From contig JAVKIJ010000016.1 of the NCBI GenBank assembly GCA_031459535.1, forward strand, positions 1 to 45,115: a stretch of 45,115 nt of DNA. The letters run 5' to 3'. The notes beneath the pieces are model-generated. The model saw only the letters and a program-made list of their open reading frames with translations. It was not told where the DNA came from and searched no databases. Positions 5,786 to 37,620 of the stretch are shown one piece after another (positions within the stretch are counted from its first letter, which is position 1; each line of letters starts with the position of its first letter). This DNA is from Candidatus Fervidifonticultor quintus (GTDB taxonomy: Bacteria; Sysuimicrobiota; Sysuimicrobiia; Sysuimicrobiales; Humicultoraceae). Made by a program: the position numbers and the translations under genes.

Positions 5786-6481
5786 TCACGGGCGCACGCT
5801 GTAGCGGACGACGCACCACAGACTGGTCAGCGCGTCCTTCAGCCTGACCTTCTTGCCCTCGGCCCGCGTCCGCGGTCGGTACGAGATGGGGACCTCCCGG
5901 ATGCGCCATCCGCCCCTGGCGATCTTCACGGTCACCTCAGGGTCGAACCCGAAACGGTCCTCGCGCAGGTCGAGACGCTCGAGCACGTCACGCCGGAAGA
6001 CCTTGTAGCAGACGCAGACGTCCGAGAGGCCGAGCCGGGTGAAGGCGTTCGCCCACACTGTCAGGGCCCAGTTGCCCAACCGCTGGCCCGATGTCCCCCT
6101 TGAGTTCCTCCCGAGAACCCGGGAACCGTAGACCACGTCGGCCTCGCCGCGCAGTAGCGGCGCGAGCAGCCGCGGGTAATCCCGCGGGTCGTACTCGAGG
6201 TCGGCGTCCTGCACCAGCACGACCTCGCCCCTGGCCTCCCGAAAGCCTCGCCGCAGCGCCGCGCCCTTGCCGGCGTTGGCGGGCTGCGGCAGCACCCGCA
6301 TCTGGGCTCCGAGGTCTCCGTTCAGCCGCCGGAGTACGTCCAGCGTGCCGTCGGTCGAGCCGTCGTCCACCACGATGATCTCTTTGTCGGTCCGCTCGGC
6401 GCAGACCCGGCGAACCAACTCCTCGATGGTGGCGCGCTCGTTATACGCCGGGATGATGACCGACAGCAGCGGACGCATCAC
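5786..6481 (-). CDS. Glycosyltransferase family 2 (polyprenol-phosphate glycosyltransferase/DPM1-like)
   Basis: SVIIPAYNE, VVDDGSTDGT, NAGKGAAL, QDADLEYDP, VYGSR, EVPISY motifs. Confidence 0.92.
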   Translation of the reverse strand: MMRPLLSVIIPAYNERATIEELVRRVCAERTDKEIIVVDDGSTDGTLDVLRRLNGDLGAQMRVLPQPANAGKGAALRRGFREARGEVVLVQDADLEYDPRDYPRLLAPLLRGEADVVYGSRVLGRNSRGTSGQRLGNWALTVWANAFTRLGLSDVCVCYKVFRRDVLERLDLREDRFGFDPEVTVKIARGGWRIREVPISYRPRTRAEGKKVRLKDALTSLWCVVRYSVRP

Positions 6482-28263: not shown

Positions 28264-28760
28264 CGTCGGCGGACCGGCGCGCTTCACGCCACGTGCGGGC
28301 GCGCGCCTTTGCCGAAATCTGCGTCGTCGCTGCGGCCTATGCCGCGCTGACCATTCTTCTGGCCCCCATCAGCTACGGGCCGGTGCAGTTTCGCCTTGCC
28401 GAGGGGCTCAAGTCGCTGGTGGTGTGGCGACCGCATCTGGTGGCCGCCTTCGTGGTGGGAAACTTCCTCGGCAACCTGACCAGCCCGAACGTCGGGCCGT
28501 GGGAGCTGGCGTTCATGCCGGCAGCTAATCTGATAGGCGCCACGCTGTGCGCCGTGACGGGCCGACGCTCCCCGTATCTGGGCGCGGCAGCCTACGCGGT
28601 GATCATTGCCGCGGCGGTGAGCCTGATGCTGTCGGCGATCCTGAGGGTGCCCTACGCCGTGCTCTTCCCGCCGTTGCTGTTGAGCGAAGCAGTCCTCATC
28701 GTTGGCGGGGTCCCGATCATGGGCCGCATCCACCGGGCTGTCGCCTCGCGCCGTCCGTAG
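28260..28760 (+). CDS. queT: QueT-family queuosine precursor transporter
   Basis: AAYAALTILLAPISYGPVQFRLAE signature; GTGA overlap with queF. Confidence 0.88.
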   Translation: MTSADRRASRHVRARAFAEICVVAAAYAALTILLAPISYGPVQFRLAEGLKSLVVWRPHLVAAFVVGNFLGNLTSPNVGPWELAFMPAANLIGATLCAVTGRRSPYLGAAAYAVIIAAAVSLMLSAILRVPYAVLFPPLLLSEAVLIVGGVPIMGRIHRAVASRRP

Positions 28761-31700: not shown

Positions 31701-33166
31701 AAGACTGGGTCCTTCGCCTCTTCGACCATGGACCGCAGGACCCTGTTGAGGTCCTCGCCGGTGTAGCCAAACGCGCGCTGCTGCGCGGTCAGGTCGGGTG
31801 GTACCGGCGGCCGGGCCGGGGTCCGGACTTCGGTGAGGCGCACCAAGTGGCGCTCCAGCCAGTCGCCGTAGGGACGCTGCGCACCGCAGAGGATCTTGAC
31901 GGCATCATCGCGCAGCACCACGCCCTTGTGCGTGTCCACGGCCAGGACCTGCCCGGGGCCCAGCCGCCCCTTCTCCAGCACCCGGCCCGGGGCGATATCC
32001 ACCACGCCGGCTTCGGAGGCGACCAGCACCAGGCCGTCACGGGTGATCACGTAGCGGGCAGGGCGCAGGCCGTTGCGGTCCAGCGAGGCGGCAACAAAGC
32101 GGCCGTCCGAGCACGCGATGGCCGCCGGCCCGTCCCATGGCTCCATCAGGCACGCGTGGTATTCGAAGAAGGCGCGCACGAAGTCCGGGAGGTCAACGAT
32201 GCCTTCCCAGGCACCGGGAATCAGCATCAGCAGCGTGTGGAGCAGGCCTCGACCGCTGCGCCGCAACAGCTCCATCACGTTGTCCAGCATGGCGCTGTCG
32301 CTGCCGCCCGGCTGGACAATGGGGAGCAGATCGTCCAGGCCGCCGGGCCACAGCGGTGAGGAGAGCAGCGGCTCGCGCGCGGCCATCCAGGTCACGTTGC
32401 CCTGCAGGGTGTTGATCTCGCCGTTGTGGGCCAGCAGCCTGAAGGGCTGGGCCAGCGCCCAGGACGGCAGGGTGTTGGTACTGTACCGCTGGTGGAACAC
32501 GGCGATGGCGGTCTCGAAGGCGGGATCGGTCAGGTCGGGATAGAAACGGGACAGCTGCGGCGAGACCAGCAGCCCCTTGTACACCACGGTCGCCGCCGAC
32601 AGCGAGGCCACGTGCAACGCCAGGCCGTCTGCCAGCGCCCGACGCTCGATCAGCCGCCGCGCCCGATACAGCGTGCGCTCGAACGCCTCGTCGTCACAGT
32701 CGCGCGGCCGGCCCACGACGAACTGGGCGATCTCGGGCTGCGTACGCCGGGCGTGCTCGCCCAGCGCGCTCGGATCGGTGGGCACCAGGCGCCACCCCAG
32801 CACAGGGACACCGCACGCCTCCAGCGCGGTCGCCACCAGCATCCAGGCGGCTCGGGCCGCGTCGGCGTCCTGGGGCAGGAAGATCATGCCCAGGCCGAGG
32901 TCGGCGTTGGGCGTCTTCAGTCGCAGGTCACGGCGTAGCAGGGCGTAGGGGAGCTGGGTCAGCACGCCGGCGCCGTCGCCCGTGCGCGCGTCTGCGGCCA
33001 GTGCGCCCCGGTGGCTCATGGCCGCCACGGCCGCCAGCGCGTGGTGCAGGATGGCGTGGCTATGGCGGCCCCGCCGGTCGGCCACGAAGCCCACCCCGCA
33101 CGCATCGCGCTCGCGCGACCAGCTCGCCGGGATGTCAGTCTTCCGGTGTTCCTGCGCTTGCGGCAT
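28652..33166 (-). CDS. gltB: Glutamate synthase large subunit
   Basis: ERDACGVGF (Ntn Cys), HQRYSTNT, HNGEINT, MEPWDGPA, FAQVTNPPID, KMAQGSKPGEGG, GCVMARQCHLNTCPVG, GCEYMTGG. Confidence 0.97.
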   Translation of the reverse strand: MPQAQEHRKTDIPASWSRERDACGVGFVADRRGRHSHAILHHALAAVAAMSHRGALAADARTGDGAGVLTQLPYALLRRDLRLKTPNADLGLGMIFLPQDADAARAAWMLVATALEACGVPVLGWRLVPTDPSALGEHARRTQPEIAQFVVGRPRDCDDEAFERTLYRARRLIERRALADGLALHVASLSAATVVYKGLLVSPQLSRFYPDLTDPAFETAIAVFHQRYSTNTLPSWALAQPFRLLAHNGEINTLQGNVTWMAAREPLLSSPLWPGGLDDLLPIVQPGGSDSAMLDNVMELLRRSGRGLLHTLLMLIPGAWEGIVDLPDFVRAFFEYHACLMEPWDGPAAIACSDGRFVAASLDRNGLRPARYVITRDGLVLVASEAGVVDIAPGRVLEKGRLGPGQVLAVDTHKGVVLRDDAVKILCGAQRPYGDWLERHLVRLTEVRTPARPPVPPDLTAQQRAFGYTGEDLNRVLRSMVEEAKDPVFSMGDDTPLPPLATRPRALADYFRQRFAQVTNPPIDPLRERLVMSLAGYVGPRSNPLEEGPQHARLIHLPTPVLTLEMMDAIRARTPFPVRTLSTLFDAHRGPGEMRRALEALSVSACRAAAEGVGLIVLSDRGVAPDRAPVPMLLAVSAVHHGLLRAGLRGRVGLIAESGEAKDIHHMACLIGYGASAVCAYLALETIVADAEDEHTARRRVAAWREAVEGGLLKIMSKMGISTLSAYHGAQVFEVVGLAPDLIEAYFPGTPSRVGGVGLDELAAAVLARHVQAFAAGGPIVETGWIRYRKDGEYHAFNPAVVKAIHRVARGEDAGAPAAVADLAALVDQRPPTALRDLLEFVPGDPVPLDEVEPASEIVRRFVISAMSHGALSLEAHTALAIAANRLGARSNSGEGGEDPGRYARRPQEAWANSRIKQIASARFGVTPAYVLSADELEIKMAQGSKPGEGGQLPGHKVSAEIARIRRAQPGITLISPPPHHDIYSIEDLAQLIYDLKVVHPQARVAVKLVAETGVGTIAAGVAKGFADTIQISGADGGTGASPLDSIKHAGVPWEIGLAETQRVLIASGLRGRVRLRVDGGLKVARDVVIAALLGAEEFGFGTAAVAALGCVMARQCHLNTCPVGIATQREDLRRKFAGRPENVINYLLGVAEGVRSLLASLGARRLDEIIGRADRLRPKPGAPVEVGALLADVPVPDDPRLRRCVVPRNLRPEEPYDETHLLPHLPAILLGQPVELHLPLRNVHRAVAARLAGAVAVRFGDAGLPEGSVRLHFAGAAGQSFGAFLVSGIHLRLVGEANDYVGKSMAGGEIVLVPPAPLVAESWRHVIAGNTVLYGATGGRFFAAGRVGERFAVRNSGATAVVEGCGDHGCEYMTGGVVVVLGETGRNFGAGMTGGEAFVYDDAETLPQRYNTQLVTITRVSGADAERLRDLVAAHYEATGSRRARMLLGNWEAHLMRFWKVAPKAAADYGRREATARWMRPMIGTPPTMRTASLNSNGGKSTA

Positions 33167-33236
33167 GGCGACTCGACATCGAATACGGAAGCCCGAGGAA
33201 CTGGTCCCCCCTGGCACGGAGGCCGACCTCCGCAGC

Positions 33237-33351
33237 GAGGAACCTCTCCCTCGGGCTTCTCTCCCGACGGTGTAGCGGATAGATGATCCGCCTGCGTCGC
33301 TCGAACCAGACCGGCCCTGGTCGGGCCGCGGAACCCTAGACGCACGTCCTC
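33237..33351 (-). ncRNA. ykkC-motif subtype 2 riboswitch, probably ppGpp-sensing (2a)
   Basis: Minus strand GAGGACGTGCGTCTAGGGTTCCGC...GTCTGGTTCGAGCGACGCA...TACACCGTCGGGAGAGAAGCCCGAGGGAGAGGTTCCTC has the ykkC core, ACACC junction and P0 (GAGGA/TCCTC); lies in the gltB leader. Confidence 0.85.
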
Positions 33352-33393
33352 AATGACGCCGGCGAGGGCAACCTCGACCGGCCTTTATCGGCT

Positions 33394-33422
33394 ACCATAC
33401 GAGAGCCCGACGCGGATGTCAA
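33394..33422 (-). promoter_or_regulatory. sigma70-type promoter of gltB
   Basis: TTGACA-17 bp-TATGGT. Confidence 0.8.
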
Positions 33423-33432
33423 GCGGAGCACC

Positions 33433-33461
33433 TCGTCACATTTGGCCACGATCGGTATAAT
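33433..33461 (+). promoter_or_regulatory. sigma70-type promoter of otsAB-treS
   Basis: TCGTCA-17 bp-TATAAT. Confidence 0.65.
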
Positions 33462-33478
33462 GGAAGGAGCGCACCAGC

Positions 33479-33620
33479 CTGCCAATCGCCTAATCCCTCC
33501 ATCCGGAGGGAGCGGGGGACCCAAGATGTGGGGCGAATCTCGCGGCGCGCAGGAGGCCGCGAGACGGGGTGTCTCTGGACCCGAGCCCGTCAGCTCACAC
33601 CGCCGGCAGACCAGAGAGGT
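33479..33620 (+). ncRNA. c-di-AMP (ydaO/yuaA) riboswitch
   Basis: AATCGCCTAATCC...GGAGCGGGGGACCCA...TGGGGCGAATC...CCCGAGCCCGTCAGCTCACACCG. Pseudoknot tctctgg (33572-33578)/ccagaga (33611-33617) overlaps the RBS. Confidence 0.88.
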
Positions 33621-33623
33621 GGT

Positions 33624-35934
33624 ATGACGCTCCAGCCTTCGTCGAATCGCGCGGCCCGGGTCCAGGCCACGATGAAGGACCTGCTCGGCCAGCGCCAGTT
33701 GATCGTCGTGAGCAACCGGGAGCCCTACGTCCATCGCCGCGGGCGTGGAGGTGTGGAAGTCGAGTCGCCGCCCGGCGGGCTCGTCGCGGCCCTCGACCCG
33801 GTCATGCAGGCTGTTGGCGGCGTCTGGGTCGCCTGGGGGGTCGGCGAGGCGGACTTCGAGGTCACCGACGGTCGGGACTGTGTGGCCGTCCCACCTGGCG
33901 CTGGCGCCTACACGCTTCGTCGGGTGCGCCTGTCACCCAAGGACGTCGAACGCTTCTACCACGGGTATGCCAACCAATCGCTGTGGCCGCTGTTCCATCT
34001 CGCGGTGGACAAGGCGCGCTTCGCGCGGCGGTACTGGATCGCCTACCAGGAGGTCAATCGGCGGTTCGCCGCGGCGGCGCGCGAGATGATCCGTCCCGGG
34101 GCCCTGGTGTGGATCCACGACTACCATCTGGCCCTCTGCCCCCGGTATCTGCGACAGTGGCTCCCGCAGGTGTTCCTCATGCACTTCTGGCACATTCCCT
34201 GGCCATCGTGGGACGTGTTCCGCATCTGCCCGCAGAGCGGGGAACTGCTGGAGGGGTTGCTGGCCAACGACCTGCTGGGCTTCCACCTGCCGCGGCACGT
34301 GCGGAACTTCCTCGACTGTGTGGCGCACGAACTGGGGGCTGAGGTGGATCACGATCTGGGCCTGGTGGAGTACGGCGGGCGCTACACCCGCGTCCAGGCC
34401 CTGCCCATCAGCATCGACGTGGATGCCTGGGAGCGGGCGGCGTCCTCGTTGGACTGCGCGCGCTGGATGGCCCGCCTGCGACACCGCTTTCGCCTCGCCG
34501 ATCGGGCTGTGGGTATCGGCGTGGACCGCCTGGACTACACCAAGGGGATTCCCGAGCGCCTGCGCGCCATCGAGCTGCTGTTCCATCGGCACCCCGACGT
34601 CCGAGGCCGCTTCGTCTTCATTCAGAAATCGGCGCCGAGCCGCACGCGGATAAAAGCCTACCGCGATCTACAAGCGCAGGTCGAGGCCGCAATCAACCGG
34701 ATCAACAGCATCTTTGGCAACGACACCTGGCGGCCCATCATCCACATTCCCAGGCCGCTGCCACCCGCGGGCATGGCGGCCCTCTACCGGATGGCGGACG
34801 TGTGCGTCGTGTCCTCCCTGCAAGACGGGATGAACCTCGTGGCCAAGGAGTTCGTGGCCTCTCAGGTGGACGGCCGCGGCGTCCTGGTGCTCAGCGAGCT
34901 GGCCGGGGTCTCCGACGAGGCGCCGTGGGCCATCACGATCAACCCTTACGATCCCGACGGGGCGGCCGAGGCGTTGTACCAGGCGCTGCTCGTGCCCGCG
35001 GCCGACCGGCAGGAGCGCATGCGCCAGATGCGGGCGCACCTGCGCCAGCGCGACATCTATCACTGGATGGAGCAGCATCTGCGTGCGGCGGCGCACCTCG
35101 TGGTGGGCCGTGAGGCCACCCGGTCGGTCTTCGAGGACCTGGAGACCGTGCGTCGGGTCTCGACCTCGCGGGACGTCCTGGCGCTGCTGGTGGACTTCGA
35201 CGGCACACTGGCCCCCATCGCCGACCGGCCGTTCGACGTCACGCTGCCTCCGCTGACGCGGTCACTGCTGGCGCGGCTGGCCCGCCGGCCCCGCTGCCGG
35301 GTAGCCGTGGTGAGCGGCCGCGCGCTGGACGACCTCAAGGCGCGTGTCGGTCTGCAGGACGTGGTCTACGTCGGCAACCACGGGTTCGAGATCGCGGGTC
35401 CGGGATGGGCCGCCGAGCGCCGGGACGCCGCCGAGGTGCGCCGCCTCATCGCCGCGTGTAGCGCGCGGCTGCGGGAGCGGCTGCAGCACATCCGGGGTGC
35501 CATGGTGGAGGACAAGGGTCTGACGGCCAGCGTGCACTACCGGCTCGTCCGGGGCGATCAGGTCGAGCAGGTGCGGCAGATCGTCTTGACCGAGGTCGCC
35601 CAGCTCCCTCCGGGAAAGGTGGAGGTGCGGCGCGGCAAGCGGGTCCTGGAGCTGCGCCCGGCCATTGACTGGGACAAGGGCCGGGCCGCGGTGTGGCTGC
35701 TGGAGCGGTTGGTGGGCAGCGACTGGCGGAAGCGGTGCGGGGTGCTCTACGCGGGCGACGACCGTACCGATGAGGATGCCTTCCTGGCCCTCGGCGACGC
35801 CGCGATCACCATCAAGGTGGGCTCGAGCCCGTATCCCACCGCCGCACGGTACATGGTCCGCGATGTCGCCGAGTTCACCCAGCTCCTCCAGACTATCCTG
35901 GCGTGGGTCACGACGCCGGAGCCGACAACAGTGC

Positions 35935-35945
<11 letters not shown>
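33624..35945 (+). CDS. otsAB: Bifunctional trehalose-6-phosphate synthase/phosphatase (OtsA-OtsB fusion)
   Basis: [46 protein letters not shown], then HAD domain [21 protein letters not shown]. Confidence 0.95.

Positions 35946-37616
<1,671 letters not shown>

Positions 37617-37620
<4 letters not shown>

Follow-up and report, generated by a model that had tools for sequence, protein, structure and literature searches.

Divergent ppGpp-type and c-di-AMP riboswitches between glutamate synthase and trehalose genes of Candidatus Fervidifonticultor quintus are probably independent neighbours

Introduction

Do two riboswitches for different nucleotide second messengers, lying back to back between genes for two osmolytes, form one control device or two? 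The question is raised by a stretch of 45,115 nucleotides from Candidatus Fervidifonticultor quintus (hereafter the window; contig JAVKIJ010000016.1 of assembly GCA_031459535.1), in which a predicted ppGpp-type leader precedes the gene for glutamate synthase and a predicted c-di-AMP leader, on the opposite strand, precedes trehalose genes. A succession of early glutamate and late trehalose is the enterobacterial model of osmoadaptation, and the earlier note on this DNA drew on it in proposing a protein-free control node that would link stringent response and osmotic signalling, with possible promoter competition.

Ca. Fervidifonticultor is a genus of the phylum CSP1-3/Sysuimicrobiota (PMC11604079), 94 genomes of which (incomplete MAGs) were screened for the two RNA families and the two proteins, all RNA figures below being counts among the matches listed. 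The tallies include an unpublished genome (G022) in which ykkC, gltB and otsA are matched but c-di-AMP is not. The literature comparison included the available text of PMC10117811, PMC8886135, PMC7266159, PMC9481103, PMC5393176 and PMC11962464.

Results

The minus-strand gltB starts at 33166 and the plus-strand otsAB at 33624, which leaves exactly 33167-33623 between them and bears out the 457-bp intergenic region described earlier (Table 1). Two other starts, a GTG at 33217 upstream for gltB and Met17 for otsAB, are ruled out because the sibling sequences align to 33166 and 33624, respectively. The start of treS overlaps the stop of otsAB, and the closest matches of OtsAB are in Ca. Fervidifonticultor and related MAGs. 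No gltD lies beside gltB, nor does the genome (89% complete) contain a match over the TIGR01317 (GltD) cut-off; ferredoxin or a distant partner may substitute for GltD. At its far end gltB converges with queT, and their 3' ends overlap by about 109 bp (28652-28760).

Table 1. Features of the gltB/otsAB locus (positions in the window)
Feature	Position	Strand	Evidence
gltB, glutamate synthase large subunit, 1504 aa	28652..33166	-	NF008730 1683 bits, over cut-off
Terminator-like stem, 3' arm, and weak U-tract of the gltB leader	33180..33200	-	13-bp stem in MFE fold
ykkC subtype 2a (ppGpp-type) aptamer including helix P0	33237..33351	-	RF00442; subtype positions
5' hairpin starting the predicted gltB transcript	33358..33382	-	Fold; not conserved in siblings by alignment
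Sigma70-like gltB promoter, TTGACA-17-TATGGT	33394..33422	-	Consensus match 10/12; predicted start ~33387
Sigma70-like otsAB-treS promoter, TCGTCA-17-TATAAT	33433..33461	+	Consensus match 10/12; predicted start ~33468
c-di-AMP (ydaO) aptamer	33477..33623	+	RF00379 67.7 bits vs cut-off 38, full length (Rfam)
otsAB, fused trehalose-6-phosphate synthase/phosphatase, 773 aa	33624..35945	+	NF011071 657 bits vs cut-off 634; Pfam GT20 and Trehalose_PPase
treS, trehalose synthase (maltose alpha-D-glucosyltransferase)	35935..37620	+	TIGR02456 934 bits, over cut-off

The DNA of the window is present in hot-spring metagenome runs, and the contig of one run, possibly the source of the window, shows 0 differences over 32890-34400. 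An assembly error behind the unusual bases described below is thus not supported, although the identical contig may itself be the source data. Contigs of RNA run X4 cover otsAB at 33616-33808 and 33860-34192, as sequence that carries no information on starts, strand or level, and the lack of such cover over the leaders carries no weight. The window genome encodes two diadenylate cyclases (DAC), the enzymes for the ligand of a c-di-AMP riboswitch, and one long Rel, and a genome-wide RNA-family search found one c-di-AMP aptamer and two ykkC aptamers in it.

The two divergent sigma70 promoters of the earlier note, with -35 boxes 10 bp apart, were recovered by a promoter scan that found three sites against 0.1 in shuffles, both promoters being predicted purely by consensus match. 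The gltB promoter has its -35 box at 33422-33417 and a -10 box ending at 33394, and the otsAB promoter has its -35 box at 33433-33438 and a TATAAT ending at 33461. Both are unusually near consensus for this genome and form the only back-to-back pair among the 88 sites of at least 10/12 in the 3.1-Mb assembly. If each transcript is taken to start 7 nt beyond its -10 box, the two predicted starts are about 81 bp from each other, without any overlap of the transcripts. Closely spaced divergent promoters are familiar from lambda PR/PRM, which likewise has -35 boxes back to back about 10 bp apart and starts about 80 bp apart; unlike that pair, the window promoters have no shared protein regulator identified and their spacing varies among siblings. 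A third promoter-like site (9/12, 33457-33485, minus strand) overlaps the otsAB promoter and is directed at gltB.

Each promoter is followed, as the earlier note had it, by a different riboswitch class, RF00442 on the minus and RF00379 on the plus strand. The left-hand RNA matches ykkC/Guanidine-I at 33244-33350 with 66.6 bits (Rfam cut-off 63), so that its Rfam label is 'Guanidine-I' and its assignment to ppGpp rests on subtype tests taken from PMC6031431 and from PMC6003355 with its supplement. A pyrimidine at position 49 marks subtype 2, whereas guanidine-I has A (PMC6031431), and this position is C in the window and in all 30 aligned phylum copies. Helix P0 has five pairs (33351-33347 with 33237-33241) and a C-U mismatch as the sixth; C75 occurs in 30/30 aligned copies with no G96 partner, which separates them from the PRPP type; and the P3 stem lies 10 nt from P0 in 29 of the 30. 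By eye, this P3-P0 stretch has the length and first three bases of the validated D. hafniense switch, in a region that aligns poorly by the source paper's own warning. The window copy has the wild-type base wherever M1-M6 carry mutations, and the gene context is that of a ppGpp riboswitch: gltB here, and ykkC within 400 nt of gltB in at least 55 of the 62 phylum genomes with gltB. C49, P0, P3 length and gene context together argue against guanidine and PRPP as ligands. One position departs from this pattern, the equivalent of A5, a base that contacts the pyrophosphate (PMC6031431): 33346 is C, where 29/29 other phylum copies, four published templates and a contig from a sister population (see below) have A.

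An ON switch by antitermination may be inferred for the gltB leader from the covariation of its pairing arm and from the validated D. hafniense switch. Its arm 33200-33188 pairs with the 3' strand of P3, and across 30 leaders (30 aligned of 98 phylum matches, with a more distant arm picked by script in three) the P3 base and its arm partner covary as 16 G/C/G, 11 A/U/A and 3 A/U/G. In folding energy the terminator-like structure is favoured over the aptamer by 17 kcal/mol; ppGpp would stabilise P0/P3 and block the terminator-like stem, which would turn gltB on, much as P3 acts as antiterminator in the D. hafniense ilvE ppGpp riboswitch (PMC6003355). The weak points of this leader are its poor U-tract and the C at 33346, which also set it apart from the ppGpp riboswitches of Sherlock et al. 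(2018; PMC6003355), with which it shares fold, subtype markers and target. That paper lists glutamate synthase genes as targets in 15 of 105 examples and reports that organisms with such a riboswitch also control branched-chain amino acid genes in this way. The branched-chain target is matched in the window genome by the second ppGpp-type aptamer (L002:1050-1620, G000:C106), which is followed by a T-box-like leader (by eye) and an ilvB-like gene. This layout matches the published ppGpp/T-box AND gate and recurs in many relatives.

The ppGpp riboswitches of PMC6003355 come mainly from Firmicutes, whereas here they appear widespread in CSP1-3. At least 70 of the 94 genomes have ykkC aptamers, and all 30 that were aligned are subtype 2. 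Most score below the Rfam Guanidine-I cut-off (at least 16 of the 94 genomes have one above it), and routine annotation therefore misses or mislabels them.

The right-hand RNA scores well over the RF00379 cut-off and contains the terminal pseudoknot, 7 bp between 33572-33578 and 33611-33617 (duplex -11.7 kcal/mol with flanks), which overlaps only two bases of a Shine-Dalgarno-like stretch (33616-33621) directly before the otsAB start codon. In its usual phylum form, such a leader would be an OFF switch: bound c-di-AMP would lock the 3' tail in the pseudoknot and free a terminator, shutting down trehalose synthesis, in line with the terminator-based OFF logic by which c-di-AMP is reported to control an osmolyte gene (PMC9337991). 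A terminator-like hairpin, mostly with a U-rich tail and able to pair with the aptamer 3' tail, indeed follows 36 of 39 aligned copies (39 of 41 phylum matches). The hairpin is missing from the window and from two other genomes (G024, G032), where the start codon comes right after the aptamer, and a terminator census of the 39 copies found none after that of the window. At another locus (L171), which encodes one of the OtsAB proteins nearest to that of the window in a quick tree, aptamer and terminator precede otsAB-treS, and the first otsAB codons of the window align to this terminator, which suggests that it was deleted in the window. Any control that is left would then be translational, through the pseudoknot beside the ribosome-binding site.

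Three bases of the core are also unusual, since 33596, 33599 and 33604 each deviate from the base found in 37/38 other copies and from the crystal construct listed in PMC5393176. The change at 33599 breaks a P2 pair, and the overall deviation of the window aptamer (5/70 columns) is high although not the highest in the alignment. The aptamer fold lies 6.3 kcal/mol above the MFE fold, a cost that drops to 1.5 when the three bases are replaced by consensus ones, and in folding these bases favour a hairpin over the otsAB ribosome-binding site. With P1 and P2 enforced, this site is not freed (unpaired 0.27 in both states, in a pseudoknot-free model), so we take the changes to weaken the arm, not to create a new ON switch. 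The window c-di-AMP switch may thus be decaying, and translational repression through the intact pseudoknot may remain. Compared with known RF00379 riboswitches, aptamer and pseudoknot are shared and the OFF terminator on osmoprotection genes is kept in 36/39 phylum copies. What differs is that the phylum targets are trehalose synthesis genes (otsAB, treT) and that the window copy, besides its three unusual core bases, lacks a terminator and runs directly up to the start codon.

Across the phylum, the c-di-AMP aptamer lies within 300 nt of otsAB in at least 21, and within 3.5 kb in at least 30, of the 37 genomes with the aptamer. Both links, ykkC to gltB and c-di-AMP to otsAB, occur in at least 20 genomes and are back to back, among the matches listed, in the window genome only; also among these matches, four of the 20 have both aptamers on one contig, at distances of 127 nt (window), 6.8 kb, 103 kb and 1.24 Mb. 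The divergent gltB/otsAB layout as such is found in the window genome (G000) and in G002, G003 and G004, all of one genus. Of these three siblings, G003 lacks the c-di-AMP aptamer altogether, while G002 and G004 retain only its 3' half, which is bordered by a TATAAT. Their -35 boxes are 10 (G000), 60 (G002), 24 (G003) and 82 bp (G004) apart, values that assume 17-bp spacers and that involve, in the siblings, poor plus-strand -35 boxes, and the gltB-side TTGACA is retained in all three siblings. This is not the conserved spacing of a coupled divergent promoter pair. In all, the seven genomes with otsAB at this locus comprise one with a whole aptamer, two with the 3' remnant (E 2e-5 and 4e-3) and four with none; three of them (G001, G009, G031) have otsAB with neither gltB nor aptamer.

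In G012, G020 and G026 an ABC-transporter operon (SBP) lies directly upstream of ykkC-gltB, with no otsAB between. G005 has a treT-BrkB-otsAB cassette upstream of ykkC-gltB, in tandem on the same strand, and its OtsAB belongs to another clade in a quick tree made without bootstrap, which suggests a second arrival at this site. In G015 (L256:4500-8200), the ABC binding protein and gltB are separated by amtB- and glnK-like genes (by eye), and ykkC is absent there, an arrangement that shows this site accepting varied insertions.

Outside these genomes, a 946-nt contig of a sister population from another study covers 33250-34157 with about 88% identity (72 mismatches, 38 gaps) and carries both aptamers. 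Positions 33346 and 33599 have the consensus base in this contig, which also carries an insertion of 9 nt at 33435. Part of its sequence is seen in a second run, possibly the same data filed twice. The pair is therefore not unique to one genome and has outlasted at least one split. A metagenome search for the divergent-pair pattern with 140-200 nt spacing and GC-rich motif forms, in which records of the window genome were possibly excluded, gave 0 matches, and neither ykkC nor gltB was found near any of 80 metagenome otsA loci. An Rfam scan of 19 of 77 otsA loci, outside the close CSP1-3 set, found no c-di-AMP aptamer. Matches to nhaA-I (RF03057) were seen near otsA at two Planctomycetota loci and one Omnitrophota locus (L046:4124-4174 and 5869-5919, L058:4963-5012, L056:15-66).

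Discussion

The locus is probably best explained by two independent cis-acting riboswitches that rearrangement has made neighbours, their juxtaposition being incidental. A cassette of otsAB(-treS), equipped with a promoter and a c-di-AMP leader of its own, would have been inserted between ppGpp-controlled gltB and the ABC-transporter operon, synteny pointing to gltB as the older resident, and the simplest history would be a single such insertion followed by piecemeal loss. Because each riboswitch acts after initiation and on its own RNA, the sole coupling would be incidental crowding of polymerases at promoters about 81 bp apart. The right arm, with three near-invariant bases changed in a way that disfavours the aptamer fold, is probably weakened and heading to the loss seen in siblings. 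Some findings sit uneasily with independent switches: the sister population retains both aptamers, the cassette of another clade next to gltB in G005 could mean repeated recruitment, both promoters are near consensus and the c-di-AMP aptamer scores well and has its full pseudoknot.

It is unlikely that the pair was selected as a coupled hub, in which the promoters compete for RNA polymerase so that starvation (ppGpp) is integrated with osmotic state (c-di-AMP) in the choice of glutamate or trehalose. The uniqueness of the strong promoter pair in the assembly, starts at a distance close to that of lambda PR/PRM, the sister population with both aptamers and the DAC and Rel genes all speak for such a hub. 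However, the aptamers are back to back in only one of 20 genomes with both links among the matches listed, the c-di-AMP aptamer is wholly or half lost in three of the four divergent-layout genomes, the promoter spacing varies, and, since riboswitches act post-initiation, there is no evident way for ligand bound to one transcript to affect the other promoter. A version confined to a small hot-spring clade, with a working protein-free node made of mutually exclusive promoters, ppGpp antitermination and a newly translational c-di-AMP switch that trades glutamate against trehalose, strikes us as improbable. We would likewise give little credence to selection for the physical linkage of gltB and the trehalose genes with uncoupled promoters, for example as a co-transferred stress module. 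Linkage of this kind would fit the adjacency of gltB and otsAB in 5/5 genus members with both genes and the different clade of the G005 OtsAB, but the adjacency is found in only 5/37 genomes with both genes, all of one genus, G001, G009 and G031 have lost gltB at the locus, and an insertion hotspot accounts for two arrivals equally well.

Two further alternatives concern single arms and are both very unlikely. If the left RNA did not sense ppGpp, either because it binds another ykkC ligand or because the change at 33346 has crippled it, the C at this position, the weak U-tract and the large stability of the terminator-like fold would be accounted for; against this stand C49, P0, C75 and P3 length, which fit subtype 2a, the wild-type M1-M6 positions and a gene context (gltB, and an ilvB-like gene behind the second copy) as published. 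As for the right arm, it could have been rewired so that the odd bases close ribosome-binding site and start codon into a hairpin that ligand or heat opens, making an ON switch, and here the odds seem to us to be equally slim. All three bases do add Watson-Crick pairs to 33617-33632, the pairing probability is 0.57 as opposed to 0.00 with consensus bases, and random triple changes match the hairpin energy in just 136/3000 (local) and 77/3000 trials, but this test was chosen after the fold was seen. Moreover, enforcing P1 and P2 leaves the site closed (no pseudoknots modelled), a change from 37 to 70 C alters little, the sister is consensus at 33599, L171 has just one of the three changes, that at 33604, and the polarity would be opposite to the OFF logic of the phylum. 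A tandem logic gate is ruled out, the two RNAs being on opposite strands with separate promoters and transcripts. The known Na+/c-di-AMP and ppGpp/T-box gates (PMC9337991, PMC9481103) likewise join two signals, one of them a nucleotide messenger, to an osmolyte or amino acid output, but they do so in one 5' UTR and one transcript, an architecture that the window RNAs cannot form.

With independent switches as the preferred reading, the components named by the earlier note hold up better than the device built from them. A ppGpp-type riboswitch before gltB (subtype 2a markers, NF008730) and a c-di-AMP riboswitch before the trehalose genes (RF00379, NF011071, TIGR02456) are both supported as predictions from sequence. 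The protein-free node is not, given separate non-overlapping transcripts, the single back-to-back case in 20 genomes (among the matches listed), aptamer loss in siblings and unconserved spacing. Nor is the stringent-osmotic link, as ppGpp control of glutamate synthase is described as part of a stringent-response and branched-chain amino acid regulon, not an osmotic one (PMC6003355), and the osmolyte succession is not needed to explain ppGpp on gltB. That no such divergent pairing had been described agrees with the literature searched, where none was found, and the available text of the 2022 tandem-riboswitch survey lacks the word 'divergent'. The earlier note would have given up the node if the adjacency were unique to this genome and the two promoters acted independently: the uniqueness nearly holds within the phylum (one of 20, among the matches listed) but not fully, as the sister population shares the layout. 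The wider search for divergent ykkC and ydaO that it called for returned the window alone among the phylum matches listed, nothing for the metagenome pattern and one sister contig with both.

The pairing itself being probably incidental, what was found along the way matters more. The conserved finding is the predicted c-di-AMP control of trehalose synthesis, not the pairing, and the main c-di-AMP regulon of CSP1-3 appears to be the cell's own trehalose synthesis (otsAB and treT, with YihY/BrkB-family, MscS and sugar-binding genes), which would extend the role of c-di-AMP from osmolyte uptake to trehalose synthesis. No description of a c-di-AMP riboswitch on trehalose genes was found in the literature searched, though the original ydaO papers or their supplements may name such genes. 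The locus also provides a natural gradation of riboswitch states, from the terminator type through terminator-less and half-deleted forms to outright loss, and this decay series and the phylum-wide c-di-AMP-trehalose regulon are the parts worth following. To these may be added that ppGpp riboswitches are common well beyond Firmicutes.

Other genes behind CSP1-3 c-di-AMP riboswitches encode TreT, YihY/BrkB-family proteins, an MscS channel and sugar-type ABC binding proteins (G005 L017:2789-5969; L013, L010, L098, L086, L091), mostly in operons with otsAB. In G002, G062 and G030 (L163:1139-2260, L164:1275-2372, L162:1-852), a c-di-AMP riboswitch precedes a gene for an unnamed protein of about 370 aa with no more than a weak cupin match, a candidate for a new c-di-AMP-regulated gene family.
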